Part shown: positions 3,082 to 62,840 of the stretch, piece by piece | How the letters are laid out: each line of letters begins with the position of its first letter | Position numbering within the stretch: position 1 is the stretch's first letter | DNA from: Planctomycetota bacterium | GTDB lineage: Bacteria; Planctomycetota; B15-G4; SIAN01 | Length of the DNA stretch: 64,000 nucleotides | Direction: 5' to 3' | Assembly: GCA_031409275.1 (NCBI GenBank) | Contig: JANNXA010000022.1 | Span: 224,001-288,000 of the forward strand | Program-made: the position numbers and the translations under genes | The notes under the pieces: model-generated | Databases searched by the model: none | Told to the model about the DNA's origin: nothing | What the model saw: only the letters and a program-made list of their open reading frames with translations

Positions 3082-5547
3082 ATGATCTCCCTCGCCTCGA
3101 TCGTCTTCGCCGTGATCCCCGCGCCGTTGGCGTTGCCGTTGCAGGCCGCGCCGCCGGAGCGGCATCACCTCGCCGAACTGTCGCTCCAGGATGCGAAGTC
3201 GGTGCGCGCGGCGCATGACGCGGGTGTCGCGCTCGACTGCCAGAGTCGACTGCCGGGCGGTCGCGCCGAGATCACCGTCACCGATCGACAGCTCGCCGAG
3301 CTGCAGCGTCGCGGCGCGCTGGTGCGCGTCACTCAACCCGATCTCGAGAAGTTCTATGCGGCGCGTCTCGAGGCACGACCGCCGCGGCGTCCCTCCCCCG
3401 CCATCGACTGGGCCGGCGGCAGCATGGGTGGCTACTTCACGTTGGCCGAAGTGGAGGCGCTGCTCGACCAGTTCGCGACCGACTACCCGTCGATCTGCAG
3501 CGCCAAATTCTCGCTCGGCCAGAGCGTCGAAGGCCGCGAGCTGTGGGCGGTCAAGGTCTCCGACCAGCCAGGCATCGATGAGAACGAGCCGGAAGCTCGA
3601 TTCGATTCGCTCCACCACGCGCGCGAACCGGTCGGAATGCACGCGACGCTCTACTTCCTCGACTGGCTGCTGTCGAACTACGGCAGCGATCCGTTGGCGA
3701 CCCACCTCGTCGATGAGCGCGAGATCTGGTTCATCCCGGTGGTGAACCCCGACGGCTACGAATACAACCGCGCGATCGCGCCCAATGGCGGCGGGCTGTG
3801 GCGCAAGAACCGGCGCGACAACGGCGACGGCACCTTCGGCGTCGACCTGAACCGCAACTACTCCTACCAGTGGGGCTACGACAACTCCGGCTCGAGCGGC
3901 AACACTGGCAGCGAGACCTATCGCGGCCCTTCCGCGGCTTCGGAGCCCGAGACGCAGGCGATGGAGGCCTTCCTCAGCAGTCGCGAATTCGCGACCTCCA
4001 TCTCCGCCCACACCTACTCGAACCTCTGGCTCTTCCCGTGGGGCTACGACTGCTTCGACCCACCGCAGCGCAGCGCGTTCGACGGCATCGCGGAGTGGTT
4101 CACCGTCGAGAACGGCTACGTGCACGGCACGATCTGCCAGGCGCTCTACTCGGCCAACGGCAACACCGTCGACTACGACCACGGCGTGCTCGGCACCTGG
4201 TCGGGCACGGTGGAGATCGGCGGCAACGGCGACGGCTTCTGGCCGGCCGCATCCCGCATCATTCCGCTGATCGAGGAGAACCTGCGCGGCTTCCAGCGCA
4301 TCGCCCTCTACGCCGCGGCGGGACTCGAGAGCAGCGATTGGTCGTGGCAGGAATCGACCGGCGACGGCGACGTTTGGCTCGATCCCGGCGAGGAGTTCGA
4401 CCTGGCGCTGACGCTGCGCAACATCGGGACGCTCGCGACCAACGGCGCGGCCACCGTGACCGTCTCGACGAGCGCCGCGGACGTGGTCGTCATCGATGGC
4501 TTCCATGACTTCGGCACGATCGCCGCGTTCGCACAGTCGGACAATCTCGCGCTGCCGTTGCGCGTCCAGATCGCGCCGGGCGCCACCGCCGGGCAACGCA
4601 TCGTCGTGCAGGCCGACCTCTCCTACGACGGATTCGTCGAGAGCCACGCGGTCGAGTTCCTGATCGGCGAGCCGTCGCGCATGGACGACGACGATCTCGA
4701 GATCAACCTCGGCTGGATCGCCGGAGATGCGTCCGACACGGCCGTGAACGGCCGCTTCGAGATCGCCGATCCGCAGCTGACGACGTCGGGCGGCAACACT
4801 TCGCAACCGGCCGACGACCACACGGCGAGCGGCACACTGTGCGCGGTGACGGACGGTCGCGCCGGCAGCAGCGCCGGCACCTACGACGTCGACAGCGGCA
4901 AGACGACGCTCTACAGCCCGCAGTTCGACCTTGAAGACAGCGTCGCGCCGCTGGTCTCGTACTGGCGCTGGTTCACCAACCTGACCAATGCCGACGACGC
5001 CTTCGTCGTCTCGATCAGCGCCGATGGCGGCGCGACCTGGAGCGAGGTCGAACGCGTCACCGGCAACCGGAATTCCTGGCAGCAGGTTCGCTTCGACCCC
5101 GCGGCCTACGTTGCGCTGACCGATCGGATGCAGCTGCGATTCGTCGTCGCCGACGACCCGAACAACTCGTTGACCGAGGCGCTCGTCGACGATCTCGGCT
5201 TCGACGCGTTCCCGACCGGTCGGGTCATGCTGTGGCGCTACGGCAGCGCGCGCCCCGGCGGCTCGCTGCGACTGCACGTCCAGGGCGTCGCCAACCAGTC
5301 GTTCGTCCTGTGGGGCGCGCAGTCGGGTGGCAGCCTGTTCCTGAAGAAGCTCGGCCTCCTCGAACTCGACGCCGCGACGATGATTCCGGTGCTCGCCGAC
5401 ACGACCGGACCCAGCGGCCGCTACACGCTGATCGCCGACCTGCCGGCCGATCCGACCCTCTCGGGCGTCGAGATCCACGTGCAACCGCTGGTGCTCGATC
5501 CGGCGGGCGCCTACCTCGGGAACGCGATCGATTTCGTGATCGAGTGA
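3082..5547 (+). CDS. Secreted M14 zinc carboxypeptidase (carboxypeptidase T-like) with C-terminal accessory domains
   Basis: HHAREP (HxxE), NPDGY, WRKNRR, GVDLNRNY, SEPET and SAHTYS motifs; AGGAG RBS before ATG 3082; signal peptide. Confidence 0.92.
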   Translation: MISLASIVFAVIPAPLALPLQAAPPERHHLAELSLQDAKSVRAAHDAGVALDCQSRLPGGRAEITVTDRQLAELQRRGALVRVTQPDLEKFYAARLEARPPRRPSPAIDWAGGSMGGYFTLAEVEALLDQFATDYPSICSAKFSLGQSVEGRELWAVKVSDQPGIDENEPEARFDSLHHAREPVGMHATLYFLDWLLSNYGSDPLATHLVDEREIWFIPVVNPDGYEYNRAIAPNGGGLWRKNRRDNGDGTFGVDLNRNYSYQWGYDNSGSSGNTGSETYRGPSAASEPETQAMEAFLSSREFATSISAHTYSNLWLFPWGYDCFDPPQRSAFDGIAEWFTVENGYVHGTICQALYSANGNTVDYDHGVLGTWSGTVEIGGNGDGFWPAASRIIPLIEENLRGFQRIALYAAAGLESSDWSWQESTGDGDVWLDPGEEFDLALTLRNIGTLATNGAATVTVSTSAADVVVIDGFHDFGTIAAFAQSDNLALPLRVQIAPGATAGQRIVVQADLSYDGFVESHAVEFLIGEPSRMDDDDLEINLGWIAGDASDTAVNGRFEIADPQLTTSGGNTSQPADDHTASGTLCAVTDGRAGSSAGTYDVDSGKTTLYSPQFDLEDSVAPLVSYWRWFTNLTNADDAFVVSISADGGATWSEVERVTGNRNSWQQVRFDPAAYVALTDRMQLRFVVADDPNNSLTEALVDDLGFDAFPTGRVMLWRYGSARPGGSLRLHVQGVANQSFVLWGAQSGGSLFLKKLGLLELDAATMIPVLADTTGPSGRYTLIADLPADPTLSGVEIHVQPLVLDPAGAYLGNAIDFVIE

Positions 5548-16224: not shown

Positions 16225-18099
16225 ATGCGGCAGCGTTGGATCCTGGTCGCGCTCGTGGCCGTCGTGGCCGCGTGCGGCGGTGGAAGCGGTTCGGTGGTTC
16301 GCAAGGGCCCAGGCACCGGTGGTGGTGGCGGCGGTGGTGGCGGCGGCGGTGGCGGCACCGTCGATGTCGAAGCTCCGACCGTGGTCATGGTCTCGCCAGC
16401 GATCGGCTCGACCGCCTCAGGAACCACGGCCGTGATCGCGGATGCGATCGACGGATTTGGAGTCATCGCGCTCCAGTTCCAGCTCGATGGCGTGGACCTC
16501 GGGGCCCCGCTCTCGGCGCCGCCGTGGCAGCTGGCCTGGGACACCACCACCGCCCTCGACGGCCCCCATTCGCTCACCGCCTTCGCGTGGGACCCGTCGC
16601 TGAACGAAGGACGGGCGACGGCCGTCGCATTCGAGGTCGACAACTCGGTGCCGCCGCCGACGCTCACCGACGCCACCTTCCTCGGCGGAGTGGACGACGA
16701 CTCGACGCGCGACGTGTTCGTCGACGCCGCGGGTTACATCTACTGCGCCGGTGGGACCGCTTCGCCGGACTTCCCGACGACTCCCGGCGCGGCGAATCGC
16801 ACGTTCGCCGGCGTCCACGATGTCTACGTGGCCAAGTTCGCCCCCGATGGCAGCCTCGTCTTCTCGACGCTGCTGGGTGGCCCCCATCACGATCGCGCCT
16901 ACGCGATCGAGGTCGATGCCCAGGGTTGCATCTTCGTCGCCGGCCGCGCCGGCGACGGCTTCCCGACCACGGCTGGGGCGCTTCAACCGACGTTCGGCGG
17001 CGACCGCAAGCCGAGTCCGCTCTACGGAGCACAGGATGGCTTCGTCGCGAAGATCGCGGCGGACGGTGGCAGCGTGCTGTGGTGCACCTACTTCGGCAGC
17101 GACGACGGCGGCATCTTGCGCGACATGGACATCGACTCCGCCGGCAACGTCTACGTCGTCGGTGAGGCGTCTCGCCCCCACTACGCCGTGACGTCCGGAT
17201 CCTTCGACTCGACGCTCGAAGGGGCGACGGACGGGATCGTCGCGAAGATCGCGGCCGATGGCGGCTCGGTGATCTGGGGGGCCTACTTCGGCGGCTCCGA
17301 CATGGACGGCGGGACGCCCTCCGTGCGTGCGGGCGACGACGGCACGACCTGGGTTCTCGGATCGAGCCGATCGACCGACTTCCCGGTCACGCCGGGTGCC
17401 TATCAGCTCACGAACGGCGGCATCACCGATCTCGTGCTCCTGCGCATCGCGCCGAGCGGGGCGACGCTCGACTTCGCGACTTACTTCGGCGGCAGCGACG
17501 TCGAGTACACCGAAACGCATGGCCTCTGGGTCGAGCCCGACGGCACCGTGACGATGTCGGCTTCCACCGAATCGCCCGATCTTCCATTCGTCCCCGCCTC
17601 GACTCCGCCGTCCTTCCAGGCGAACTACGGAGGCAGCGGTGGCGTCGGCACGGGGTTCTCCACCAACTACGCCGGGGACGCCTTCGTCGCCAAGTTCGCG
17701 CCCGATGGCAGCACGCTGCGCGCCTTCACCTACCTTGGCGGCACCGAAGGCGAGGGCGCCGAAGGGGTGGCGCTCGATGACCGTGGACGCGTCTACCTCA
17801 GCGGATCGACCTATTCGGCCAACTTCCCGATCACGACCGACGCCGTTCAATCGCAGATAGGGTTGCTCTCGGACGCCTTCCAGGCGCGCCTGTCGAGCGA
17901 CCTGACCACGCTCGAGTTCGCGACCTTCCACGGCGGCGATGACGACGACGCGAGCCGCACGCTGGCGATCGGCGTGAATGGACAGGCGGTGTTCGGGGGG
18001 ATCACCCACTCGTCGAACCTGCCGACGACCGCCGGTGCGTTCATGGGCGCTCCGGGCGGTGGCCCGACCGACGCGTTCGTGATCCAGGTCGACGAATAG
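16225..18099 (+). CDS. Lipoprotein with Ig-like domain and SBBP beta-propeller repeats
   Basis: Lipobox VAAC, poly-Gly linker, Ig-like module (FQLDG...WDTT..DGPHSLTA), repeated STLLGG/TYFGGS..D and DFPTTPGA..DxFVAK units. Confidence 0.85.
   Translation: MRQRWILVALVAVVAACGGGSGSVVRKGPGTGGGGGGGGGGGGGTVDVEAPTVVMVSPAIGSTASGTTAVIADAIDGFGVIALQFQLDGVDLGAPLSAPPWQLAWDTTTALDGPHSLTAFAWDPSLNEGRATAVAFEVDNSVPPPTLTDATFLGGVDDDSTRDVFVDAAGYIYCAGGTASPDFPTTPGAANRTFAGVHDVYVAKFAPDGSLVFSTLLGGPHHDRAYAIEVDAQGCIFVAGRAGDGFPTTAGALQPTFGGDRKPSPLYGAQDGFVAKIAADGGSVLWCTYFGSDDGGILRDMDIDSAGNVYVVGEASRPHYAVTSGSFDSTLEGATDGIVAKIAADGGSVIWGAYFGGSDMDGGTPSVRAGDDGTTWVLGSSRSTDFPVTPGAYQLTNGGITDLVLLRIAPSGATLDFATYFGGSDVEYTETHGLWVEPDGTVTMSASTESPDLPFVPASTPPSFQANYGGSGGVGTGFSTNYAGDAFVAKFAPDGSTLRAFTYLGGTEGEGAEGVALDDRGRVYLSGSTYSANFPITTDAVQSQIGLLSDAFQARLSSDLTTLEFATFHGGDDDDASRTLAIGVNGQAVFGGITHSSNLPTTAGAFMGAPGGGPTDAFVIQVDE
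16318..16356 (+). repeat. GGY trinucleotide run encoding a 13-Gly linker
   Basis: Direct reading: 13 consecutive ggt/ggc codons. Confidence 0.85.
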
Positions 18100-20941: not shown

Positions 20942-21571
20942 TCAGTGGTGCGCAGCGGCGCCGACCGTTGCCAATGGCGCGTCGGCCTGCGTGCTGGCCG
21001 TCTCCGCCGCAAGCGGGCGGCACTCCGGGGCGCAGCTCTGCAGCGTGAAACGCTCGAGTCGCTCGCCGACTTTTCGCCAGCGTGCCAGTGCCTGCGCCGA
21101 TTCGGACGCAGCGGCTTCGCGTGCCATGAGCTGCAGCTGCGCGACCTCGTCGTGCAACGCGACGAGGCACTGGTGGAGTTCGTTGGAGGTGGTCTGCAGG
21201 TGGTCTTCCTTGCGGATCTGGACGCCGCGCGGCAGGCGCAGTTGCTTCAGCTGGCGGAACACCTGTCGGAAGCGGAACTCCGGACCGGCGATTCGCAGCG
21301 TCTCGCGCAGACCTTGCCCCATCAGGCAGAAGAACGTGCATGCCATCGGCAGCAGCACCGCGAAGGCGAGCAGCTCGACGCGGCTGAAGAGCTCGAGGAT
21401 CCCCCAGCTCGGGAAGCCGCTCAGATAGCCGATCGCGGCCGGCATCCCGATGGCGAGGGCGAAGAAGAGCACGGCGTTCGCGGCAAGGATCACCGCCAGA
21501 CGCGAGACGATTGCGAACTGGAAGCGGCGATCGACCAGGATCGAGCGCCGACGATCGGGCAGCGGGTTCAT
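20942..21571 (-). CDS. Two-TM membrane protein with HAMP-like/coiled-coil tail
   Basis: RRSILVDRRFQ, two hydrophobic helices, RIAGPEFRF...IRKEDHLQ pattern; ATGA overlap with the upstream HEAT gene. Confidence 0.7.
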   Translation of the reverse strand: MNPLPDRRRSILVDRRFQFAIVSRLAVILAANAVLFFALAIGMPAAIGYLSGFPSWGILELFSRVELLAFAVLLPMACTFFCLMGQGLRETLRIAGPEFRFRQVFRQLKQLRLPRGVQIRKEDHLQTTSNELHQCLVALHDEVAQLQLMAREAAASESAQALARWRKVGERLERFTLQSCAPECRPLAAETASTQADAPLATVGAAAHH

Positions 21572-22911
21572 CGCGTCACTCCGGAGCGGCCGAGCAACCG
21601 CGCAGCAAGCGCGGCCACCTGCGGATCACGATCGTCGAGCACGGTCGCCAGCTCTTCACGGCACGCCAGCGTCCCAAGACGCGCCAGCGCCTCGCATGCC
21701 GCGAGACGCAACTCGAGTTTCCGATGGCGCAAGACCGCCCCGATCGGCGCGGCGAACACGTCGGCGTGGATCTTCTTTCGCGCCAGCGACCCGAGCGCCT
21801 GCAGGACCTCCGCGACGTTGTCGCTGTCGAGCGCCCCGACCCACTCCGATCCTGGCCCCGCGAGCCACGAGACCTCCGCGTTGACCCAATCGAGCCACTC
21901 CTTGGTGGAATTGCCCAGCGCCACGCCGCTCATCTCGAGCAGCGACCGGTGCGCGACCTTCCGGACCCGTTCGTCGGTGTCTCCGAGTCGCACGATGAGC
22001 GCGCGCGCCGAGAGGACGTCAGCGAACCGACGCAGTGAGTAGCTGCTGGCCCGGTGCACGGCTGCGGTTTCCGAAGCGGAGAGCTTGCGAAGAACCTCGG
22101 CCATGGCGAAGCCGTCGCGTGCGCGCTGCGGCGGGTGGCGCTCGAGGTCCTCGAGCAGCACGCGGTCGAGTTCCGGCTGGCGACCGAGCAGCCGCGCGCT
22201 GAGCGCGCTCGCCAGATCGCGATCAGCGGCGCGGATCGCCTCGATGGTGCAGGTCGCGAAAGCTGGCGGAAGCGCCAGAAGGAAGCGTTCGAGGTCACCG
22301 CGGGCGGTGCGGTCGCCGGCGAGGATGGCGGCCAGCGCGTTTCGAAGCGTGCCCGCGACGACGGGATGGCCGTGGAAACGAGGATCGAGCCCCGCCATGG
22401 CCGACTGCAGGAGCGCGAGGGACGCGGCGCGACCCAGTTCGCCGCTCACGCGCATGATCGCGAGCGTGTCACGAAGCTCCGGTGCCAGCGCGATCGCGCC
22501 GCGCAGGAATTCGTCGACCGCTGACTCCGGGAACGAGCGCAACGCGTGCAGGAGCAACTGATGGTCTGGTGGTGGCTCGGAGGGTCCGCCGGTCGTGGAG
22601 TCGATTCCTTCCGCGACCGAGTCGCCCTCGATCGACAGACCGGCGAGTCGCGCAAAGCACGCCGGGATCGCCGGCTCGCCGAGCTCCAGCAGGCGCGCGA
22701 GCTGATCGCTTTGCGAGGCGTGGAGTTCGTTGCGAAGGATCGTGGTCACCGCGGTCGCGGCCGCAGCTCCGTCCGCGGGATTGGCCACGGCGCGCCGCAG
22801 CTCGAGTTCCTGCGAGCGCAGCGCCGGCGTCAGGTTCGGCAGCACGAATGCCACGAACAGCAGTGGCGTGCTGCGCCGTTGCCATCCCTGCGTCATGTTC
22901 CGAGTCCTCAC
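21568..22911 (-). CDS. HEAT-repeat protein with putative signal peptide
   Basis: LGDTDERVRKVAHRSL, LRLAACEALARLG, LDDRDPQVAALAARLL; start may be GTG 22911 or an ATG a few codons downstream. Confidence 0.75.
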   Translation of the reverse strand: MRTRNMTQGWQRRSTPLLFVAFVLPNLTPALRSQELELRRAVANPADGAAAATAVTTILRNELHASQSDQLARLLELGEPAIPACFARLAGLSIEGDSVAEGIDSTTGGPSEPPPDHQLLLHALRSFPESAVDEFLRGAIALAPELRDTLAIMRVSGELGRAASLALLQSAMAGLDPRFHGHPVVAGTLRNALAAILAGDRTARGDLERFLLALPPAFATCTIEAIRAADRDLASALSARLLGRQPELDRVLLEDLERHPPQRARDGFAMAEVLRKLSASETAAVHRASSYSLRRFADVLSARALIVRLGDTDERVRKVAHRSLLEMSGVALGNSTKEWLDWVNAEVSWLAGPGSEWVGALDSDNVAEVLQALGSLARKKIHADVFAAPIGAVLRHRKLELRLAACEALARLGTLACREELATVLDDRDPQVAALAARLLGRSGVTR

Positions 22912-24305
22912 CGGTTCACCGACGCCGGACGCCAGGCGAGGAAGCTGAGCGTGTCCGAAGCGGTGCTCGGCAGGCCGGGCAGCGACACCGCGTCACGCGC
23001 GACTCGATCGTCGAAGTTGACGGTCAGGCGCGAGTGCTGGCCCCCGAAGTCGCGGTTGATCGACACGTGGTTGCCGGCGCTCATGATTCCGTTCAGTTCG
23101 ACGGTGGCGGAACCGGTGGCGTCGAGGTTGTTGTCGAGGAAGTCGTGCTCCGCGTACATGTAGGCGCTCATCGACTTCAACGTGCCGAACGCGGGGTCAC
23201 CGAAGTAGATGTTGCCGCTGTCGGAGACGCTCGGATCGGCCATCGCGATCAGCGCGAGCGCATCCTTGTTCTCGTCGCCATAGAAGAGGTTGTCCGAGAT
23301 GTAGATGTTGCCGCGCACGACGATGGTGATGGCGAGCGCCGCGGCCGCTTGCAGCTGGAACGAATAGGTGATGCGGTTGTGGATCCAGAGGTTGCCGTCG
23401 ATGTAGTAGACCTTGTTGTTTCCATCGGCGCCGGCGGCGCCGCCGAGCGTGATGACGTAGGGATCGGAGCCGTCCTGTTTGGAGTCGGAGTTCACCGGCT
23501 CGTACGGATCCTCGAGGAAGTAGTCGTCTTTGGCCGTCGATGACGTCTCCGAGCTCCGGTCGGTCGGGTTCTTCCGGAAGATGTGCGCCGCATTGTCCTC
23601 GGGCACCTGGTCGGCCTTGCCACCAGCGGCGTTGGAGGCGAACGTCGAGTGGCTGGCGAATTCGCTCGCCACCATGACGTCCGCGGTCGTGTCGTAGTTC
23701 ATCGCAGCGAGGTCGGGGTTCTGCTGCGTCACGCCAGACTCGCCCGGTGCGCCCGTGATCGTGCCGGTGGCGCGCGGCATTCCGGTGATGCCGGAGTCGC
23801 CCACGAACTCGACGTCGCCGCCGCTGTAGATGTCGCCATGGACGTGGTCGGCCTGACCGCCGCTGCCCCCGAAGTGCATCGTGTAGTTCGGGTCGCCCGA
23901 GCTGTTGCCAGCGAAGACTGCGTTGTCGAACACATCGGCGCCGGCGCGGAAGACGGCTTCGATGGCCCGCGTCGAGCCGTGGTACGTCCCGTAGCAGAAC
24001 ACGCTCACCGTGTTGCCGGGCTGCGGGATCGCCTCGGTCCAGTAGCTGCCGTTGCCATAGACGACCGGGTTGTTGGCGTCGCCGAGGTTGCCGTCGCCGT
24101 CCCCCGTGAGATCGATCTCGGCGAAGCGCGCGGCGGCCTCGGCCAGATAGAAGCGCTGCAGGCTGTCCTGCGACTCGTTCTGCTCGACATTCGCCGAATG
24201 GACCACCGAGATGAGCGACGCGCCGAGTCCGGCGAGGACGATGGCGGCGAAGATCGCCGCAAGCAGCGCGCTGCCTCGGGCGGCACGACGGGCGGAATGA
24301 CTCAT
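22908..24305 (-). CDS. PilX-like minor pilin / pilus-assembly protein
   Basis: Prepilin-like RG|SALLAAIFAAIVLAGLG, then FYLAEAA typical of PilX N-termini; beta-rich C-terminal domain. Confidence 0.75.
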   Translation of the reverse strand: MSHSARRAARGSALLAAIFAAIVLAGLGASLISVVHSANVEQNESQDSLQRFYLAEAAARFAEIDLTGDGDGNLGDANNPVVYGNGSYWTEAIPQPGNTVSVFCYGTYHGSTRAIEAVFRAGADVFDNAVFAGNSSGDPNYTMHFGGSGGQADHVHGDIYSGGDVEFVGDSGITGMPRATGTITGAPGESGVTQQNPDLAAMNYDTTADVMVASEFASHSTFASNAAGGKADQVPEDNAAHIFRKNPTDRSSETSSTAKDDYFLEDPYEPVNSDSKQDGSDPYVITLGGAAGADGNNKVYYIDGNLWIHNRITYSFQLQAAAALAITIVVRGNIYISDNLFYGDENKDALALIAMADPSVSDSGNIYFGDPAFGTLKSMSAYMYAEHDFLDNNLDATGSATVELNGIMSAGNHVSINRDFGGQHSRLTVNFDDRVARDAVSLPGLPSTASDTLSFLAWRPASVNR

Positions 24306-24331
24306 GGTCCAGCTCTCCAGCGGACGCAACG

Positions 24332-24976
24332 TCAATTGCGCGGCCATACGGTGGCCTCGACGGTTCGGCGGAACGTCGCGTTCCTCTGCGTGTGCTCGAG
24401 CGTGAGGCGAATGATCACGGAGCCCGCCGCCGTGCGCTCGAACACGAGACCGGCTTCGTCGTCGAGGCCGTTTCCGTTGTCGTCCGCGTTGTTCACCACC
24501 TCGCCTTCGAGGAAGCGCGCGACGCCGGTGGCCAGCACGGTCGACTGCTCGCTCACCAACCCGATATCGCGCCGCAGGACGAGGATCCCCTCGTCGACCC
24601 GGCCATCACCGTTGTTGTCGATGCCATCGTCAGGATCGGCGGGGTCGGCCTGCCGTTCGAGTCGCGCGGCGTTGCCCCAACCGATCCCGGCGGAAGTCAC
24701 GGTCGCCGGGACCTGGAAGTCGAGGAAGCTGCTCCCGAGCGGCGCGGCCGCCGGCGAAAGCGTCGCCGCGCCCGCGGGCAACAACGTCTCGGCGATCCGA
24801 TTGAGCGACTCGTTGGCGCGACGGTCGATGACGGCGCGCGCCATCGTGCGCTGGCCGTCCGCCATGCCCGATTGCACGAAGCTGAAGACGCCGCCGAGGA
24901 AGACCGAGATCACCGCGACGTTGACCAGCAGCTCGTGCAGCGTGAAACCGGAGCGCGATCGATTCTTCGGATTCAT
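24332..24976 (-). CDS. PilW/PulJ-like minor (pseudo)pilin with N-methylation motif
   Basis: SG|FTLHELLVNVAVISVFLGG type IV prepilin site; DGIDNNGDGRVDE and DDNGNGLDDE Ca-loop-like motifs. Confidence 0.82.
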   Translation of the reverse strand: MNPKNRSRSGFTLHELLVNVAVISVFLGGVFSFVQSGMADGQRTMARAVIDRRANESLNRIAETLLPAGAATLSPAAAPLGSSFLDFQVPATVTSAGIGWGNAARLERQADPADPDDGIDNNGDGRVDEGILVLRRDIGLVSEQSTVLATGVARFLEGEVVNNADDNGNGLDDEAGLVFERTAAGSVIIRLTLEHTQRNATFRRTVEATVWPRN

Positions 24977-25587
24977 GGGCGGCCCCCGCCGACGACGGTG
25001 GCGAAACGCAGCGTCCGGGTCCCGCCATCGGGGGCCAACCAGTCGACGCGGATGGTGATCGGCAGGATGCGATAGTCGCCCGAGCGATCGACCGCGTCGA
25101 TCACGCCATCACCGTTCAAGTCAGCGCGATCGCCGAGTTCAGCGAACAGCAGATCCTCGCGCAGGACTTCGTTGCCGCCGATGGTCGCGAGGGGCAGGTC
25201 GATGCGGCAGGTCATCTTCGGCGGGATCGCCTGCGGATCGCCCTTGGCGCGCTCCTCGCCGGTGGGCATCTCGAAGACGTCGCCGCGCGCCGTCCCGCTG
25301 CCCCGCGGGTCATCGTTCGGATCGCGGTTGTAGGCGGCGACGACCTGCGCGATCGGCTGCGCGAGCATCTCCTCGACGACACGGCGCGCGATCTCGTTGG
25401 CAGCGGCGACCGTCCGGGTCTCTCGTTCGAGCGCGCTCGACGACACGGTCGCGGAAAGGAAGCCGAGGCTCGAGATCGAGACGACGACGATCGCGACGAG
25501 GCTGTCGACGAGGCCGATCCCGCGACGATTCGCCGCGCGTCCCGAACATGCGCGATCGGTGCGGTTGCTTCTCGAACTCGTAACCAT
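24973..25587 (-). CDS. PilV-like minor pilin
   Basis: RRG|IGLVDSLVAIVVVSISSLG prepilin-like N-terminus; DLNGDGVID loop; ATGA overlap with the next gene. Confidence 0.72.
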   Translation of the reverse strand: MVTSSRSNRTDRACSGRAANRRGIGLVDSLVAIVVVSISSLGFLSATVSSSALERETRTVAAANEIARRVVEEMLAQPIAQVVAAYNRDPNDDPRGSGTARGDVFEMPTGEERAKGDPQAIPPKMTCRIDLPLATIGGNEVLREDLLFAELGDRADLNGDGVIDAVDRSGDYRILPITIRVDWLAPDGGTRTLRFATVVGGGRP

Positions 25588-37942: not shown

Positions 37943-39544
37943 TCAACGCATCAGCTTGAACCAGCAGGCGTCCTGTGGCGCGCCGCCGAACGTGGTCTGG
38001 AAGGCTCCCGGCGTGGTCGGATAGTCGTTGGAGTCGGCGGTGCCGGCGGCCACGAGCGATCCGTCGCTCGCCAGCGCGAACGAGCGCCCGAGATCGTCAT
38101 CGCCACCGCCGCAGAACGTCGCGTACTCGAGCGTCGTGAGGTCGTCGCTCAAGCAAGCGAAGAGCTGATCGGCACCGCCATCCTTCTGGCGCTGGAACGC
38201 ATCGCTGGTCGCCGGGAAGTTCGTCGAATAGGTCGCGCCGGAACAGCAGATCCGCCCTGAGCCATCGACGGCGACGCCTTCGAGCCCCTCGCCGCGCGAG
38301 CCGCCGAGGTAGGTGAAAGCGAGGAGCGTCGTGACGTCGGCGGAGAACTTGGCGACGAAGCCGTCATAGGGATAGTCGGTGCCAGCGCCGGTGCCGGAGC
38401 CTCCGCTGCCGCCATAGCTGGGCTGGAACGGTGGCGGGATCGAGGCGGGGACGAACGGGAGGTTGGTCGACTCGCTGGTGGCGGCGACGATGGCGATGCC
38501 GTTGGCGTCGATGCACAGGCCGTGCGTCTCGGAGTACTCCGTCGCGGTTCCGCCGAAGTAGCTCGCTCCGAGGAGCGAGCCGCCACCGATCGCGATGTGG
38601 AGCAGGACCATGTCGATCCCGCCGGCTCGTGAGTCCTGATAGGCGCCGACCGTCGTTGCGAAGTCATCCGATTGCGACGTGCCGAGCACCCATACGGTGT
38701 CGTCCGGCGCGATTCTGACCGACGGCGTTCCACCGTCGCTCCCGCTGCCACCGAAGTACGAGCCCCAGACGATCGTCGATCCGTCGGCGCTGATCTCGGC
38801 GACGATGCCATCGCCCGATCCCCCGAGCACCGTGTCGAATGCGCCGACGGTGACCGCGTAGTGCGGACGGTCGGGCGCTCCGACCACGTAGCAGTTGCCG
38901 GCGGAGTCGATCGCGACGTCGCGGCAGATGCTGCCGTCGTCGTTCCCGAAGTAGGTCGACCACAACAGCGTCGAACCGTCCGCGGAGAGTTTCGCCACGA
39001 AGCCGTCCTGCGCGCCGTACTTGTTCGATGGCGCGACGTCGCCGCCGAAGTTGGGCTGGACGGAGCCGACGGTGGTCGGGAAGCCGGTGCCGGCGCGACC
39101 GGCGACGTAGATCGCTCCTTGATCGTCGACCTCGATGGCATAGGCGCGGTCATACATGCTGCCGCCGAGGTAGGTCGCGAACACGAGCGCGCCGCCATCG
39201 GGAGTGAACTTGGCAACGTAGGCATCGTTCGTGCCGTTGAACGTCGTGTCATAGGCGCCCGCCGTCGCGGGGAAATCGGGCGACGCGGTCCCGCCGACCA
39301 CGTAGACGAACCCCTGCGCGTCGACGGATACGTCGCGCACCGAGTCGATGTCATTGCCGCCGAGGTAGGTCGTCGCCGAGAGCACGAACGGCGACGCGGG
39401 CGGTCCGCCGCCGCCACCACCTCCGCCGCCGCCTCCCGACGAACCGCCGCCGCCGCCGCCACCGCCGCATCCCGCGAGCAGCAACGTGACCAGGAGCCGC
39501 GCCGGCACCGACGCCGGCACCGAGCGAATCGACTGCAACTGCAT
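37943..39544 (-). CDS. SBBP beta-propeller lipoprotein, paralog of 16225-18099
   Basis: Lipobox LAGC, poly-Gly linker, colinear SBBP repeats (DRAYAIEVD, YGAQDGFVAK, ETHGL, LPFVPAS). Confidence 0.85.
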   Translation of the reverse strand: MQLQSIRSVPASVPARLLVTLLLAGCGGGGGGGGSSGGGGGGGGGGGPPASPFVLSATTYLGGNDIDSVRDVSVDAQGFVYVVGGTASPDFPATAGAYDTTFNGTNDAYVAKFTPDGGALVFATYLGGSMYDRAYAIEVDDQGAIYVAGRAGTGFPTTVGSVQPNFGGDVAPSNKYGAQDGFVAKLSADGSTLLWSTYFGNDDGSICRDVAIDSAGNCYVVGAPDRPHYAVTVGAFDTVLGGSGDGIVAEISADGSTIVWGSYFGGSGSDGGTPSVRIAPDDTVWVLGTSQSDDFATTVGAYQDSRAGGIDMVLLHIAIGGGSLLGASYFGGTATEYSETHGLCIDANGIAIVAATSESTNLPFVPASIPPPFQPSYGGSGGSGTGAGTDYPYDGFVAKFSADVTTLLAFTYLGGSRGEGLEGVAVDGSGRICCSGATYSTNFPATSDAFQRQKDGGADQLFACLSDDLTTLEYATFCGGGDDDLGRSFALASDGSLVAAGTADSNDYPTTPGAFQTTFGGAPQDACWFKLMR

Positions 39545-56420: not shown

Positions 56421-57764
56421 ATGCATCGCCGCAGCCATGGCCGATTCGATCGCCGCTCGATGCTTCTCCTCGCGCTGCCGCTCGCCCTTCCAGCCTGCGG
56501 CAACGGCACCTCGAACCGGGCGCGCTCGATCGGCGGCCTCGCCGACTTCGGCGCGTTGGCGACCGACCCGGAACGCAATCGCTTCTGCGCGGGCGATGCG
56601 GCGAGCGGCCGTCTCGTCGTCCTCGACGCGGCCGACGGCCAGTTGCAGTTCGACGTGCCAAGCGCCGGACAGAGTGTCGGCGGCCTCCTCTACGAGGCGT
56701 GCAGTCGCTCGCTGTACGTTTCGATCAGCGCGCGCGGACGCTTGTCGACGTTCGATCCGGTGACGATGATCGAGCGCTCCTCGATCCGCCTGCCGAGCGC
56801 TCCCTTCGCGCTCGCGGAAGCGGCCGAACACACGCTGCTGATCGTGACGGCGAACGGCGTGGTCCACTTCGACCCTGTCAGCCGCTCGCTCACCACGCTG
56901 TTGCCGACGATCGCGCGGGACGCCCTCGTCGTCAGCGATCGCGATTCCGAGGTGGGCTGGGTCGCGGAGACCGTGGCCGGGGCGACCACCGTTCATCGAC
57001 TCGATCTGGTGAACCTGACGACGCCCCCCACCAGCAGCGCCGTTTCGCTCGCCGGCGAAGTCGTGGGACTGGCGGTCAGCTGGGACTCCTCCCGTCTTTA
57101 CGTCGGCACCAACGTCGCGCCCGGAATCCACATCCTCGATGCGGCAACGCTCGCCGAGGTTGACGCGATCGACGTCGGCGACGGCCTCACCAGCCTCGCC
57201 TTGAATTCGACCGGGCTGCGCCTCTTCTGGTCGACCGGCGGCCCGCTGGTCGAGAGCGTCATCGTCGAGCCGCCTTTCGTCGGCCCCACCGTCGCACTGC
57301 TCGAAGGGCCGCGCCCACGCGGCTTGGAGCTCGCTCCGAACGGCCAAGACCTCGCGTGCTGGAGCGATCTGGGCGTGCTCGCCACCTACGACGTCCGAAC
57401 GCTGAGCCTTCGGGCTCCGGCCGTGCTGCGGCAGGGCGAGACGGGCACGATGGAACTCCACGGCGAGCCGAAGGGCGCCTACCTCGTCCTGCTCAGTTCG
57501 GAGCCCGGCGCCTTCATCCTCGACCCTCGTCCGGTCGACGATCCGCGCCTCGTCGAGACCTCGCTCACCGCCGGCTTCCAGGTGGTCGCCTCGGGGACGT
57601 TCGATGCCAACGGTGACGCCGTCCTGACCGACGTCGCGCCCACGGGAGCGAACGAAGCGCTCGACACGGTGTGGCAGGTGGCGCAAGCGAAGTCGGCGAC
57701 CAACCCCAGGTTGACCCTCAGCAACGCGATGGTGATCCGCTTCCTCGGACCTGAGTGCCAATAA
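56421..57764 (+). CDS. YVTN/YncE-like beta-propeller lipoprotein with C-terminal beta domain
   Basis: Lipobox LPAC; repeats such as GLAVSWDSSRLYV and ILDAATLAEVDAIDVG; start 56421 or 56460. Confidence 0.75.
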   Translation: MHRRSHGRFDRRSMLLLALPLALPACGNGTSNRARSIGGLADFGALATDPERNRFCAGDAASGRLVVLDAADGQLQFDVPSAGQSVGGLLYEACSRSLYVSISARGRLSTFDPVTMIERSSIRLPSAPFALAEAAEHTLLIVTANGVVHFDPVSRSLTTLLPTIARDALVVSDRDSEVGWVAETVAGATTVHRLDLVNLTTPPTSSAVSLAGEVVGLAVSWDSSRLYVGTNVAPGIHILDAATLAEVDAIDVGDGLTSLALNSTGLRLFWSTGGPLVESVIVEPPFVGPTVALLEGPRPRGLELAPNGQDLACWSDLGVLATYDVRTLSLRAPAVLRQGETGTMELHGEPKGAYLVLLSSEPGAFILDPRPVDDPRLVETSLTAGFQVVASGTFDANGDAVLTDVAPTGANEALDTVWQVAQAKSATNPRLTLSNAMVIRFLGPECQ

Positions 57765-57846: not shown

Positions 57847-58659
57847 ATGCAGCGAACGGCGCGGATCCTGGCAACGATCTCGATCGGCTGGGGTGCAACC
57901 TTCGTGGGCGCTCAGTCGGCGGACCTACCGCCGCCCGAGAAGCCACTGCCAATGGCAGGCGAGCTGTTTCGAGTCGAAGGGCGAACGGCGTTCATCATCC
58001 CGCCCGGCAAGAGGATCCCCGACGTCGCGACGCCGTGGGTCTGGTACGCCCCGACGCTTCCCGACCTCCCCGCCGGCGAAGAGCTCTGGATGTTCGAGCG
58101 CTTCACCAAGGCGGGCATTGCGGTCGCCGGCATCGATGTGGGCGAGTCGTACGGCAGCCCCGATGGGCGCGCGCTCTACTCGGCCTTCCATCGCGAGCTG
58201 ACCGAGAAGCGCGGCTTTGCGCTGAAGCCGGTGATGTTGGGGCGCAGTCGCGGTGGGCTCATGGCGCTTGGATGGGCCGTCGAGAACGCCGGCAGCGTCG
58301 GCGGCTTCGCGGGGGTCTACCCGGTCTGCAACATCAGCAGCTACCCCGGCGTGGCCGAGGCGAGTGCGGCGTTTCGACTGAAGCCGGAGGAGTTGACGGC
58401 GCAGCTTTCGGACCACAACCCGATCGACCGTCTCGCCGCCTTGGCGAAGGCGAAGGTGCCCCTCTTCGCGATCCACGGCGATTGCGACCGCGTGGTCCCG
58501 CTCGAAGCCAACTCCGGTGAGTTGCGCAAGCGCTACGAGGCCCTTGGCGGCGCAATGCAGCTGCTCATCCCCGAGGGGCAGGGCCACAACATGTGGACCG
58601 GATTCTTTCAGTGCCAGGAGTTGGTCGACTTCGTCGTCGCCAACGCGAAATCCAAATGA
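57847..58659 (+). CDS. Secreted alpha/beta hydrolase (S9-like)
   Basis: GRSRGG nucleophile elbow, HGDCDRVVP, GQGH. Confidence 0.85.
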   Translation: MQRTARILATISIGWGATFVGAQSADLPPPEKPLPMAGELFRVEGRTAFIIPPGKRIPDVATPWVWYAPTLPDLPAGEELWMFERFTKAGIAVAGIDVGESYGSPDGRALYSAFHRELTEKRGFALKPVMLGRSRGGLMALGWAVENAGSVGGFAGVYPVCNISSYPGVAEASAAFRLKPEELTAQLSDHNPIDRLAALAKAKVPLFAIHGDCDRVVPLEANSGELRKRYEALGGAMQLLIPEGQGHNMWTGFFQCQELVDFVVANAKSK

Positions 58660-59186
58660 ACGCGCTGCCGCGACGCATCGATCTGCTCCTCGTGCTGACG
58701 TGCGCAGGGTGCCGTACGCCCGACGTCGCGAGGAACGACTCGCCGGTCGAATCGCCGGTCGAATCGCCCGTCGAATCGCCGGTCGAAGGCGCGAGCGGGC
58801 TCGCGGGCTCTCCGCTCGACGCGCTCGTGGCGGCGGGATACCAGGTCGCAGCGAGTCCGACCGGCGCGTTCACCGCCGCATGGCGTCCGGTGGCGGACAG
58901 CGTGCCGGTGAACGAGCTCTTCCAGATCGAAGTGCTCCTCTATCGCGGACGCGCGGAAGGTCGAGCGAGCGATCCGCCGCTCGCTGGCGCGATGCTCCAG
59001 GCGAGCGCCTGGATGCCCGAACACATGCATGGCATGAACCGTCGGCCGCAAACGGTCGAGACGGCGCCAGGCCACTATCTCGTGAGCGGAATGATGCTCC
59101 ACATGGAGGGCTCCTGGCAGCTCTTCCTCGACGTGATGGCGAGCGGCGTGTCGGAACGGGTCGAGTTCGCGATCATGTTGAGATGA
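58656..59186 (+). CDS. YtkA/FixH-like lipoprotein with Met/His metal-binding motif
   Basis: Lipobox CAGC; WMPEHMHGM and HMEGSW motifs; ATGA overlaps on both sides. Confidence 0.78.
   Translation: MNALPRRIDLLLVLTCAGCRTPDVARNDSPVESPVESPVESPVEGASGLAGSPLDALVAAGYQVAASPTGAFTAAWRPVADSVPVNELFQIEVLLYRGRAEGRASDPPLAGAMLQASAWMPEHMHGMNRRPQTVETAPGHYLVSGMMLHMEGSWQLFLDVMASGVSERVEFAIMLR
58740..58787 (+). repeat. 4 x 12-bp tandem repeat encoding (SPVE)4
   Basis: tcgccggtcgaa x2, tcgcccgtcgaa, tcgccggtcgaa. Confidence 0.9.
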
Positions 59187-60520
59187 GGCGCGCCTCCTGC
59201 TTCGCGCTGGCGATGGTCGCGGCGGCCGGCGGTTGCGAGAGCTCGCAAGCGCCGCCGCCGGTTGCGCCCAACGCGCCCGACGCGCCCAAGGTCGGCGCTG
59301 CCGCGCCTCTCTCGATCGAGGGGTTCACGCCCGAGGAGCTGCGCGCCGTCCTGAAGCTCTCGCCGCTGCCCGATCCGCCGCCCGACCCGACCAACGAGTT
59401 CGCCGACGATCCGCGTGCGGCGCGCCTCGGGCAGTACCTCTTCTTCGACCAGCGCTTCTCCGCCTCCGGCGACGTGGCGTGCTCGACCTGCCATCAGCCG
59501 GAACTCGCGTTCGCCGATGGCAAACCCTTCGGCGAGGCCCGAGGCAAGAGCGGAACGCCGCTCGAGCGCCACACGCTGTCGCTCTACAACGTCGCCTACC
59601 AACGTTGGTGGTTCTGGGACGGGCGCGCCGACACGCTCTGGAGCCAGGCGCTGCGACCGCTCGAGGATCCGCGCGAGCACGCGACGTCCCGCCTCGCGAT
59701 CGCGCACGCGCTCGACGACGATCGCCGCCTGAAGGGCGCCTATGAGACGATCTTCGGCCCGCTGCCGGAGCTTGGCGCCGAGTCGCGCTTTCCTCGCAGC
59801 GGACGGCCCGGCGACCCGGAATGGGCTGCGATGGCGCCCGCCGATCAGCTGGCCATCGACCGGGTCTTCGTGAACTTCGGCAAGGCGCTCGCTGCCTACG
59901 AACGACGACTGCTCTCGCGCTCGGCGCCATTCGACGACTTCATCGCCGGCGTGCGCTCAGGAAACCTCGATCAGCAACGCACGCTGAGCCCGCTGGCGCG
60001 CGAGGGGCTGCGCCTCTTCGTGGGCGAGGCGCGCTGCGTGCTATGCCACAGCGGCCCGACCTTCTCCGATCGCGAGTTCCACGACAACCGAGTCCCGACG
60101 CGCAGCGGCGAGCCGCGCCGCGACGCCGGTCGCCACGGCGGAGTCCCGATCGTGTTGGCCGATCCGTTCAATGGAATCGGAGGCTTCTCCGATGCGCCGG
60201 AGGGAGCGTCACAAGACAAGTTGCGCTACCTGCTGCGCACCGGCGACGGCTGGAGCGAGTTCAAGACGCCGACGTTGCGCAATGTCGCGCAGAGTCCGCC
60301 GTACATGCACCAGGGCCAGTTCGCGACTCTGGACGATGTCCTGGAGTACTACAACACGCTCGAGCAGGCGGTGCCGTCGCACTCGCCCGAACGAACGCTG
60401 TCGCCGATCCGCCTCTCGGCGGAAGCGCTGTCCGCGCTGCGCGAGTTCCTGCTGTCGCTGACCGACGTGCGGCTCGACGCCGCGTTGTTGAGGCAGCCGG
60501 AGACGCCGGACCTCCCCTGA
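59183..60520 (+). CDS. Di-heme cytochrome c peroxidase superfamily lipoprotein (bCcP/MauG/MbnH-like)
   Basis: LGQYLFFDQRFS, CSTCH, FWDGRA, CVLCH, FKTPTLRNV, PYMHQG. Confidence 0.92.
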   Translation: MRRASCFALAMVAAAGGCESSQAPPPVAPNAPDAPKVGAAAPLSIEGFTPEELRAVLKLSPLPDPPPDPTNEFADDPRAARLGQYLFFDQRFSASGDVACSTCHQPELAFADGKPFGEARGKSGTPLERHTLSLYNVAYQRWWFWDGRADTLWSQALRPLEDPREHATSRLAIAHALDDDRRLKGAYETIFGPLPELGAESRFPRSGRPGDPEWAAMAPADQLAIDRVFVNFGKALAAYERRLLSRSAPFDDFIAGVRSGNLDQQRTLSPLAREGLRLFVGEARCVLCHSGPTFSDREFHDNRVPTRSGEPRRDAGRHGGVPIVLADPFNGIGGFSDAPEGASQDKLRYLLRTGDGWSEFKTPTLRNVAQSPPYMHQGQFATLDDVLEYYNTLEQAVPSHSPERTLSPIRLSAEALSALREFLLSLTDVRLDAALLRQPETPDLP

Positions 60521-60551: not shown

Positions 60552-62840
60552 TCAGTGGCAGATGACGAAGGCGAGGCCTGCCGATGCGCAGAGCTTCTTC
60601 GGGCCTGCCGGGTCGGCCATCCACAGCTGCACATCGACCTCGATCCCGAGCAGCGACGGGTCGTCGTCGATCTCGGCGTCGACCGCGATCGTGCCAGCGC
60701 CGGCGACGCCGACCGGCCCGCTCGCCGTGACGTAGACGGTGAAGGCGGGTGGAGCGAGGTCGACCAGCATGACGATCCCCTTGACCGGGATCGAGGCGCG
60801 GGCGAACCCGACGAGCAGCACGCCAGGCGCGCCACCGAGCAGGTCCGAGCCGTTCAGTTCGAACGATGGATTGCCGAGTTTCGGATCGCCCACCGTGGCG
60901 AGCTGCGGCACGAATCCGCCGCTGCCCGCGACGCCACTTCCGTAGATCTCGACCGGGCGGCAGGTCGAAACCGTGTAGAGCTCGACGTCGTCGACGTTCC
61001 AGCCGCCGTGCGTCACGCTCGCGTCGCTCTGGAGCCGGAATCGGACGTGCGTCGTGGCCACGCCATCGGCCGCGGCCGACACGTCGAGATCGACGGTGGC
61101 CCACTCGGCATCCAGCGTGTCGAGCGTTCCGCCGTTCGTGGCGTTGCGCCAGACCTCGACGCCATTCACTTCGACGCTCGCGACGTCGTGCGCCGAGTCG
61201 GCGACGCGCAGCCAGCGCTGGAAGCGCAGGCGCGTTCCGTGGACGTCGCTCAAGTCGATCGTCGGAGACTCGAGCCAGTTGTCGCTGCTGTCGGAGTAGA
61301 GGCCGTCGCCGAAAATGCCGAGGTCGTTGCCGAAACAGGAGTTGCCGGAGGTCGTGCGGTAGGGATCGAGGAGCTTGCGGGCTGGAACGCCGCGCTCCCA
61401 GTCGTCGCTGCCCGAGTTGCTGCCATGGGTGAACCCGCCATCGGTGGCGCCGTCGAAGTGCTCGGCATAGAGGAGCGTCCGCTCGCCGACGCTGAAGACG
61501 AAGCGCCCATCAGGATTGGCCGGCCCGACGCTCGTGCCGAGCGAGTCGCTCGCCCGAATCTGGTACTCGAGGGTCGTTCCGTGGAGCTGTCCCGGGATCG
61601 CCGCCGACCACTCGTCGGGGTTGCCGGTCGGCGCCATGGCGAGGGAGACGACGTTCGTGCCGCCGTCGAGCGAGTAGTCGACCGTCGCGCTCGTCACGCC
61701 GCCGCCCGCCGAGGAGGGGGTGATGCGAGCGGTCACGACGTAGGGGCCCGACTCGTCGAGCGTGTCGGGCAAGGTCGCATGGTCGACTCGCGTCGCACGG
61801 CTCAAGACCCAGAGCCCGTCCTCGATGTTGCTGATGTAGATCGTTCCGGAGGGCTGTTGGTAGACCCCCCACGCGCCGTTGTAGTTGCCGGAGCCGCCCG
61901 CCCACGTGTCGTAGCTGCCGAGCCGGATCGGATGGTCGGGGTCGCTCACATCGAGCGCGACGTAGCCCTCGGCATAGGCCGAGAGCTGCGCGATGCCATC
62001 CGCGATGAAGACGTTGTGCAGGATCCCTGCGGGATTCTCGACGAACGTGCTGCGCAGCGTGATGTTCGACGGATCGGTCACGTCGTAGAGCGCGAGCTTC
62101 GCGCCGCGAATTTCGTCGGTCACGCCGACGATCGCGTCGGCTTCGTCGACCGTGCTGCTGTGGGTGAAGCTGGCGGGAGTCGTGATCGCGTCGAGCGTCG
62201 TCAGCGTGGGCAGCGCGCTCACGTCGACCAATCGGAAGGTCCCGGCGTAGATCTCCGAGAAGTGGGCGAGTCCGTTCTGCGCCGTGGCCTCGTGGACGTA
62301 CTGGTTCCCGTAGCTCGCGAGCAGGACGGGCGCGGTGGGATTGGCGAGGTCGAGGATCAGCAGGCCGACATCGCTGCCGCAGACGTAGAGGTGGCCGCGG
62401 CTCTGGTCGACGAAGATGCTGTGCGCCGTGTTGAATCCGAGATAGCTCGACACGACGTGGATGTTGGAGAGATCGGAGACGTCGATGATCTGGAGTCCAC
62501 CGCCCGCCGACTGATCGGTCACGACGTAGACATAGTCCTGCCAGACGGACATGTCGCTCCAGAGCGAGCCGCTGTGGGTGATGTACGCGAGCTCGACCGG
62601 GTTGGTCGGATCGGTGGTCTCGATGAACGACGTTCCATTCCAGGTGCCGAGCAGCGCCACTTCACGGCCGTCCGCCGCTCGGTAGCCGAGGACGTCGTTG
62701 TAGTCGAAGCCGCTGCTGCCGCCGCCGTCGTAGGAGTTGACGCGCGAGAGGAGATGGACGCGATCGCCTTGCGCCGATGCGCTGCCCGCCGCGACGAACA
62801 GCAGGGTGGACGAGGCGAGCCACGTGGAAGCGAAGCGCAT
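60552..62840 (-). CDS. Choice-of-anchor B / LVIVD-repeat secreted protein with accessory C-terminal domains
   Basis: Signal peptide; YNDVLGY..DGREVAL, WSDM, AHSIF, YVHE, THS, LHN, YNGAWGVY motifs. Confidence 0.85.
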   Translation of the reverse strand: MRFASTWLASSTLLFVAAGSASAQGDRVHLLSRVNSYDGGGSSGFDYNDVLGYRAADGREVALLGTWNGTSFIETTDPTNPVELAYITHSGSLWSDMSVWQDYVYVVTDQSAGGGLQIIDVSDLSNIHVVSSYLGFNTAHSIFVDQSRGHLYVCGSDVGLLILDLANPTAPVLLASYGNQYVHEATAQNGLAHFSEIYAGTFRLVDVSALPTLTTLDAITTPASFTHSSTVDEADAIVGVTDEIRGAKLALYDVTDPSNITLRSTFVENPAGILHNVFIADGIAQLSAYAEGYVALDVSDPDHPIRLGSYDTWAGGSGNYNGAWGVYQQPSGTIYISNIEDGLWVLSRATRVDHATLPDTLDESGPYVVTARITPSSAGGGVTSATVDYSLDGGTNVVSLAMAPTGNPDEWSAAIPGQLHGTTLEYQIRASDSLGTSVGPANPDGRFVFSVGERTLLYAEHFDGATDGGFTHGSNSGSDDWERGVPARKLLDPYRTTSGNSCFGNDLGIFGDGLYSDSSDNWLESPTIDLSDVHGTRLRFQRWLRVADSAHDVASVEVNGVEVWRNATNGGTLDTLDAEWATVDLDVSAAADGVATTHVRFRLQSDASVTHGGWNVDDVELYTVSTCRPVEIYGSGVAGSGGFVPQLATVGDPKLGNPSFELNGSDLLGGAPGVLLVGFARASIPVKGIVMLVDLAPPAFTVYVTASGPVGVAGAGTIAVDAEIDDDPSLLGIEVDVQLWMADPAGPKKLCASAGLAFVICH

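Follow-up and report, generated by a model that had tools for sequence, protein, structure and literature searches.

The window analyzed here, a 64,000-nucleotide stretch of a Planctomycetota bacterium genome (contig JANNXA010000022.1, positions 224,001 to 288,000), encodes a choice-of-anchor B family protein (protein A) whose C-terminal domain belongs to a real, uncatalogued, and large family of terminal tags. The tag was found on 104 open reading frames (ORFs) of this genome, here called G000, and in 20,556 sequence clusters of a public library (E ≤ 0.001), the best 150 representatives of which are all C-terminal and single-copy. Its likely role is that of an address for the envelope or of a docking tag. 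Judged from sequence, the chances are about even that it serves as a handle, not cleaved off, by which an envelope partner particular to the lineage recognizes the cargo, delivers it to the cell surface, and holds it there. Neither Pfam nor NCBIfam nor the PDB sequences cover this domain, which numbers more than 20,000 sequence clusters, and the tag marks a large share of the predicted surface proteome in several mostly uncultured planctomycete classes.

Identification of the tag family

The original prediction had taken the tails of protein A and of an M14 carboxypeptidase (protein B) as one shared secretion tag. Both quoted tails are present in the sequence, and when compared pairwise they have a common core of just 32 amino acids (41% identity; E = 1e-5), which by itself would be thin support for homology. 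Using tail A as a query against all 47,261 ORFs of G000 (93% complete; about 4,100 called genes), more than 20 C-terminal matches were identified, and a jackhmmer search seeded with the same tail converged at 60 targets that included tail B (E = 1.3e-13), placing both tails in one domain family. Reversed-sequence ORFs, used as a control for this profile, gave zero matches. Clustering of the C termini of the remaining genes yielded two further subfamilies, of 28 and 7 members, that profile comparison links to the first as homologues (probability of 95.8 and 92.1, respectively), and the combined profile converged on the 104 ORFs, three of them in the window. This set takes in a few contig-edge or broken fragments; tag-carrying genes make up approximately 2.5% of G000 genes. 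Matches were thus many, both in this genome and in the public library, where the original prediction had named few hits as a sign against it.

The tag lies 6 residues or fewer from the end in 91 of the 104 ORFs and 7 to 15 residues from it in 2, a further 9 copies are N-terminal and sit directly after the signal peptide, and 2 are truncated. The very C-terminal position first claimed therefore holds for most members but not for the N-terminal copies. There is always one tag per protein, as none of the 104 ORFs has two. Eight of the nine N-terminal domains cluster in a quick tree (support of 86, which is not strong), and one cargo type bears the tag at either end (L040 and L041 versus L052). 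Four tandem paralogues (G000:C9:26035-31192; L042, L029, L037, and L036) and one more (C16:125800-126924) have an N-terminal tag domain followed by an unannotated helical domain of approximately 200 amino acids with DxDGD motifs; these paralogues have many metagenomic homologues.

Signal peptides were called by a heuristic, and gene starts in G000 were called automatically, with many starts internal. Using the same heuristic for both sets, 62 of the 104 tagged proteins versus 346 of 2,685 controls have a signal peptide with Gln directly behind it. The domain is terminal on mostly signal-peptide-bearing proteins rather than mostly internal or on cytoplasmic ones. In a second genome, G210 (86% complete; 2.31 Mb read), 36 tag members were identified, 31 of them C-terminal and 4 N-terminal, and an N-terminal hydrophobic segment was present in 26 of 28 tagged proteins versus 557 of 1,206 controls. 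Gln after the signal peptide is common genome-wide in G000 and G210 (in the latter, in 205 of 1,206 untagged and 22 of 28 tagged proteins); Gln in this place is the Q-rule of Bacteroidetes (PMC5837995). As for the Sec signals predicted on both window proteins, A has a signal-peptide-like stretch that ends in ASA before the Gln, while its counterpart in B is weaker by the heuristic. The similar MAM/jelly-roll-like module noted upstream of both tails was recovered as a common region (residues 517 to 746 of A and 604 to 809 of B; BLASTP E = 5e-8).

Across 55 tagged proteins scanned, the cargo includes FG-GAP, PD40, and Kelch propellers, S8, M14, GDSL, and CHRD proteins, di-heme peroxidases, and a multiheme cytochrome. 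Three tagged proteins have 2 to 9 CXXCH motifs.

Predicted fold and sequence character

The tag is approximately 120 to 130 amino acids long and starts with a YGxG..G..G..P arm upstream of the motif first noted, which corrects the extent of the proposed beta-rich domain of approximately 100 to 130 amino acids. An AlphaFold2 model from 52 sequences is all-beta (pLDDT of 96.7; pTM of 0.89), with a predicted Ig-like beta-sandwich fold that has no informative nearest fold, and, as had been stated, neither the A nor the B tail has a C-terminal transmembrane helix in such an all-beta model. Foldseek returned nothing for the model at E ≤ 0.001, with weak rows for ML lipid-binding domains; S-layer Ig domains were among the generic fold rows. 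In a wide structural search, Ig, FN3, and macroglobulin domains ranked on top (best Z of 8.0), and the C-terminal region of PorU (Z of 6.9; rmsd of 3.4; 97 aligned) ranked 44th among generic Ig folds.

Only G9 and Q108 are near-invariant in the alignment, which also features a hairpin with a hydrophobic tip. The composition is rich in L, G, A, V, and P, and the grand average of hydropathy is +0.35 in G000 and +0.54 in distant families versus −0.12 for C-terminal domain (CTD) tails of type IX secretion systems (T9SS). A P/T/S/G-rich linker precedes the tag in 2 of 42 members, the tag otherwise abutting the cargo, and Cys is found on both sides of the junction in 12 of the 42. Divergent subfamilies with 15 to 25% identity coexist in one cell.

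No characterized family was found to contain the domain: Pfam and NCBIfam have none for the 52 members, and PDB sequences gave no match below an E value of 0.02 with either tag profile. Rows for a xylanase and the C-1027 apoprotein at E values of 0.02 to 0.08 were taken as chance. Matches in the ESM Atlas were only to unnamed clusters, mostly of Planctomycetota, no phage match was found, and a word-indexed homologue search with the tag alignment gave 43 matches that were uninformative. The full-text literature covered, which leaves out most subscription papers, yielded no description of the domain, and the covered text of the Saltatorellota preprint (bioRxiv 10.1101/817700, without its supplements) has no mention of "secret" or "signal peptide."

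Distribution across Planctomycetota

Within the order of G000 the tag was identified in all 41 genomes, with 15 to at least 109 matches each. A phylum sample of 401 genomes, in which up to 11 matches were scored per genome and multicopy denotes 5 or more of these, contained 82 genomes with the tag; 78 of these were multicopy and 4 had one or two copies, while 319 genomes had none. A broader 99-sequence profile again gave no match in 38 of these negatives, and the 4 low-copy genomes stayed at one or two. Occurrence in the phylum is therefore nearly all-or-none, with a bimodal distribution, and the carriers are a set of deep-branching lineages. Five distant families had 75 to 130 tag matches each among 150 scored, and the inspected copies were C-terminal in 31 of 34 cases. 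The cultured Saltatorellus ferox Poly30 had 55 tag matches among 150 scored, and a Phycisphaerales genome had none among 39 scored.

Two related low-copy genomes (G219 and G250, family f59) encode a di-heme peroxidase (L251 and L252) in which the tag is internal and another tail of approximately 320 amino acids is appended. This is one event, and it would fit a loss of terminal function where the system is missing. The appended tail is beta-rich and possibly another lineage-specific tag; homologues of it were absent from G000, from G210, and from the choice-of-anchor B set.

Exchange with known sorting tails

From the best 120 homologues of the propeller of protein A, it was found that 34 end in the tag and 53 carry PF18962, PF13860, or PF00404, with none carrying both. 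Neither label was present on the other 33, many of which are visibly T9SS- or dockerin-like or belong to a further subfamily. In line with the swapping of tails between lineages that the original prediction invoked, the tag fills the slot of the T9SS CTD, the FlgD-like Ig domain, and dockerin. Two choice-of-anchor B homologues, P0065 and P0067, have yet another unlabeled, repeat-like end, and a region like it forms the cargo part of a G000 protein (C20:59320-60579) whose own end is a tag-like domain so divergent that it scores below threshold.

The tag resembles the type A CTD of T9SS (TIGR04183/PF18962; Bacteroidota) in its predicted beta-sandwich fold, in being found as one terminal copy on many Sec-exported proteins, in the cargo families, in alternating on choice-of-anchor B proteins, and in the frequent Gln after the signal peptide. 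However, the T9SS CTD has approximately 80 amino acids versus approximately 120 for the tag, which is much more hydrophobic, has an N-terminal subfamily, and lacks a linker. None of the 52 tag members matches TIGR04183 or PF18962, and TIGR04183 is not found in G000. In four tag-rich genomes neither SprA nor PorU above the cutoff was found (a Bacteroidota control was positive for both), and no PorV was found in the 93%-complete G000. Confinement to the C terminus, a trait of the T9SS CTD, does not extend to the tag, which is N-terminal in 9 of 104 members in G000 and 4 of 36 in G210. Because SprA, PorV, and PorU were not found, a subfamily is N-terminal, and a cleavage-type linker is lacking, the tag is not a T9SS CTD; the facts on the T9SS mechanism behind this comparison are from PMC11969387.

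The FlgD-like Ig domain (PF13860) is likewise Ig-like and terminal and alternates with the tag on the same cargo, but none of the 52 members matches PF13860 or any other Pfam model. Type I dockerin (PF00404) and dockerin-like tails of Phycisphaerae are also single terminal modules in the same slot on many exported proteins. Dockerin has a helical, Ca-binding fold, whereas the tag model is all-beta and has no PF00404 match. Cohesin PF00963 was found in none of four tag-rich genomes, with controls positive, although divergent cohesins may escape this search. PEP-CTERM, GlyGly-CTERM, and MYXO-CTERM share with the tag a many-to-one relation to cargo and an all-or-none occurrence across genomes, but they consist of a short motif, a transmembrane helix, and a basic tail, whereas the tag is globular, ends at the stop codon, and has no NCBIfam match. 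Unlike carbohydrate-binding modules (CBMs), the tag has no CBM match in Pfam and is never in tandem. In sum, the tag probably acts much as a T9SS CTD or a dockerin does, yet it belongs to neither family.

Secretion systems and a candidate partner

G000 encodes six secretins, and four secretin- or pilin-based systems, including a type II secretion system (T2SS) operon, are common to G000 and G210. No large unexplained barrel was found among the few outer-membrane barrels of G210, and no SprA-like barrel was found in G000. Partner candidates were sought in 188 candidate exported proteins common to both genomes, of which 82 were scanned with Pfam and 4 of approximately 20 unannotated ones were profiled; the set covers proteins that both BLAST and the start calls recovered and that the 86%-complete G210 contains. 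A lead to the co-occurring machinery anticipated by the original prediction is one protein, here called X, that tracks tag-rich genomes; secretins and the other candidates are also present in tag-less ones.

X consists of a signal peptide, TPR-like helices, and several beta domains (model pLDDT of 87.8). It is single-copy in G000 and G210 and in both, with the whole region covered, lies at the end of the gspD-J operon. Matches to X were identified in 55 of 55 further tag-rich genomes and in none of 4 low-copy genomes, and among 84 tag-less genomes 4 had a full-length match. A control protein of equal divergence was found in all 4 low-copy genomes and in 10 of 25 tag-less genomes. Of 32 tag-rich loci, 29 have X adjoining the rhomboid gene, serS, or gspJ, which is the case in none of 8 tag-less loci. 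This flanking by rhomboid and T2SS genes is a likeness to GlyGly-CTERM, which couples rhomboid with T2SS export. No NCBIfam or Pfam family and no meaningful fold match for its model were found for X; PDB sequences gave weak TPR-like matches only, and the Atlas gave 0.84 to an unnamed cluster. Cofolding of X with the tag domain scored 0.00, which gives no answer either way. X may be the reader of the tag and is taken as a lead only, and its conserved neighborhood with serS may be housekeeping synteny.

Three other candidates were rejected as specific partners. A giant GspK-like pseudopilin was present in all 30 tag-rich and all 4 low-copy genomes but also in 17 of 38 tag-less ones, an ExbB/ExbD-linked secretin was present in 67 of 72 genomes, and a protein of 482 to 502 amino acids from the GspK operon, which served as a control, occurred in every tag-rich genome tested but in many others too. 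The pseudopilin operon (G000:C51:219140-234374, L230; and L124) encodes a giant GspK/PilX-like protein of 1,685 and 1,676 amino acids, respectively, with a LamG-like middle and no Pfam match, and an exported 482- to 502-amino-acid protein with a C-terminal Cys cluster; the operon is kept in 51 of 72 Planctomycetota tested. At a further locus (G000:C36:82533-96477, L231; and L114), large TPR proteins and ExbB/ExbD/ExbD are flanked by a pair of long secretins whose N termini are TPR-like. This is a proton-motive-force-linked secretin system, widespread in Planctomycetota.

Proposed function and alternatives

In the proposed mechanism, cargo is predicted to be exported by Sec, frequently with an N-terminal Gln, and would fold in the periplasm, since heme c proteins are among the cargo. 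The tag would be read as a folded domain rather than as a free C-terminal peptide, because one subfamily is N-terminal; this subfamily and the lack of a linker also point to recognition without cleavage. Passage across the outer membrane would be via a secretin, in a type II secretion-like manner, as this is the sole known type of folded-protein exporter found in both G000 and G210. Retention would be noncovalent, possibly via the unusually hydrophobic surface, with X as the candidate reader. In this form, the lineage-specific signal of the original prediction is kept as a bimodally distributed terminal module on unrelated exported proteins, and a close analogy to a cleaved T9SS signal is not supported.

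Several observations weigh against this proposal. Plain N-terminal hydrophobicity with the automatic starts of G000 does not differ significantly between tagged proteins and controls (57 of 103 versus 1,259 of 2,685; p = 0.11), the tag is present in only 39 of 273 soluble proteins with a signal peptide and Gln, leaving many exported proteins without it, and two lipoproteins that are already lipid anchored bear it. Of the 34 choice-of-anchor B homologues that bear the tag, 28 are closely related. As the fold is a generic Ig sandwich, it is uninformative on function. None of the secretin systems tested is restricted to tag-rich genomes, and besides the full-length homologues of X in tag-less genomes, partial ones were found in 13 more of 53 using a deep profile. 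Tag-rich genomes probably form one clade, because the control-protein scores are mostly higher in them, and the correlation with X may therefore be one historical event.

A less likely alternative is that the tag is purely a portable export signal for the T2SS secretin, with the cargo released or anchored otherwise afterwards. Its place in the T9SS CTD slot, the fact that no SprA-like large barrel was found in G210 or G000, the conserved T2SS operon with X beside it, and heme cargo that must fold before export all agree with this. However, T2SS-like secretins are also found in nearly all tag-less genomes, dockerin fills the same slot yet is no export signal, and a signal for transit needs no high hydrophobicity. 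We consider it unlikely, and put it forward tentatively, that the tag is a portable folded T2SS targeting signal read by X as a dedicated receptor, which would make it a sorting system on the scale of T9SS built independently on T2SS parts. Substrate recognition in type II secretion is not known to use a common signal, and a tag read by a secretin system would be a defined, transplantable one; if read by X, it would serve the delivery and display of surface proteins that number from a hundred to several hundred in these deep-branching lineages.

It is rather improbable that the tag is just an ordinary Ig-like domain with an accessory or ligand-binding role (for carbohydrate, lipid, spacing, or stability) that expanded in one clade without dedicated machinery. 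The match to ordinary Ig, FN3, and macroglobulin folds with weak ML rows, the tolerance of the tag at both termini and internally in low-copy genomes, and a dedicated machine that is a candidate rather than proven are in its favor, but in tag-rich genomes the tag is never in tandem or between two domains as CBMs and FN3 repeats are, and neither the all-or-none distribution nor the mutual exclusion with known sorting tails fits such a domain.

A true analogue of the T9SS CTD, with an unlisted translocon, cleavage, and covalent linkage of the cargo to an envelope glycolipid, has a slim chance. The slot is the same and the predicted fold is of the same broad class, the +1 position holds Gln as it does in Bacteroidota, G415 has two gingipain-like C25 proteins with the tag at their end, and a rhomboid protease gene lies beside X; these are outweighed by the clustered N-terminal subfamily, the junction with no linker and frequent Cys, and the negative searches for SprA, PorV, PorU, and a candidate large barrel. 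Very improbable is a hydrophobin- or S-layer-like coat in which the tag self-associates or inserts in the outer leaflet and displays cargo, for although the strong hydrophobicity, the composition, the hydrophobic hairpin tip, and the S-layer Ig domains among the generic fold rows would suit it, several divergent subfamilies are present in one cell.

If the tag is a docking module, it would be a new scaffold-free analogue of dockerin display. As the shape-shifting S. ferox is both cultured and tagged, the idea is testable.

Features of the window and other loci

Table 1. Tagged proteins of the window, their domains, and the candidate partner X
Feature	Location	Strand	Basis or remark
Protein A, 762 aa, of the choice-of-anchor B family; built from signal peptide, LVIVD beta-propeller, a module like MAM/choice-of-anchor J, and the tag domain at the end	60552..62840	-	Profile matches and tag-family profile
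Predicted Sec signal peptide of A, then Gln	62772..62840	-	Heuristic and direct reading
Choice-of-anchor B beta-propeller region of A	61803..62759	-	TIGR04312, E 2.2e-42
MAM/choice-of-anchor J-like module of A	60981..61466	-	NF038128, E 6.6e-4 (below cutoff); common to B
Tag domain at the end of A; the model predicts an Ig/FN3-like beta-sandwich plus an extra hairpin	60555..60950	-	Tag profile and structure model
Protein B, 821 aa: M14 zinc carboxypeptidase that carries a MAM-like module and ends in the tag domain	3082..5547	+	PF00246, E 1e-69
Terminal tag domain of B, divergent, without N-terminal arm	5191..5544	+	Combined profile, E 1.5e-15
Protein C, 434 aa: lipoprotein with a predicted beta-propeller; third tagged window protein, beyond the two of the original prediction	56460..57764	+	Tag profile
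Terminal tag domain of C, divergent	57357..57746	+	Combined profile, E 1.7e-12
Protein X, 664 aa (~670), exported TPR/beta	G000:C52:19368-21362		Between rhomboid gene and serS, end of gspD-J operon

Four loci in G000 (C14:209049-218894, C22:42436-53481, C16:217863-220964, and C27:147584-150649) encode families of lipoproteins of approximately 1,000 amino acids with a C-(G)n start and Ig-like repeats, none of them tagged, which are a possible surface scaffold. In the window, a gene pair at 58656-60520, which we take to encode first a YtkA-like and then a cytochrome c peroxidase-like lipoprotein, is convergent with the choice-of-anchor B gene; YtkA-like genes are also found near choice-of-anchor B genes at loci L099 and L104. 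A cluster of prepilin-like and PilX-like genes lies on the minus strand at 20942-25446. Two paralogous lipoproteins with poly-Gly N termini and SBBP-like propeller repeats (16225-18099 and 37943-39544) are untagged, and their signal-peptidase-I relatives in G210 and G305 have the tag domain at the end.

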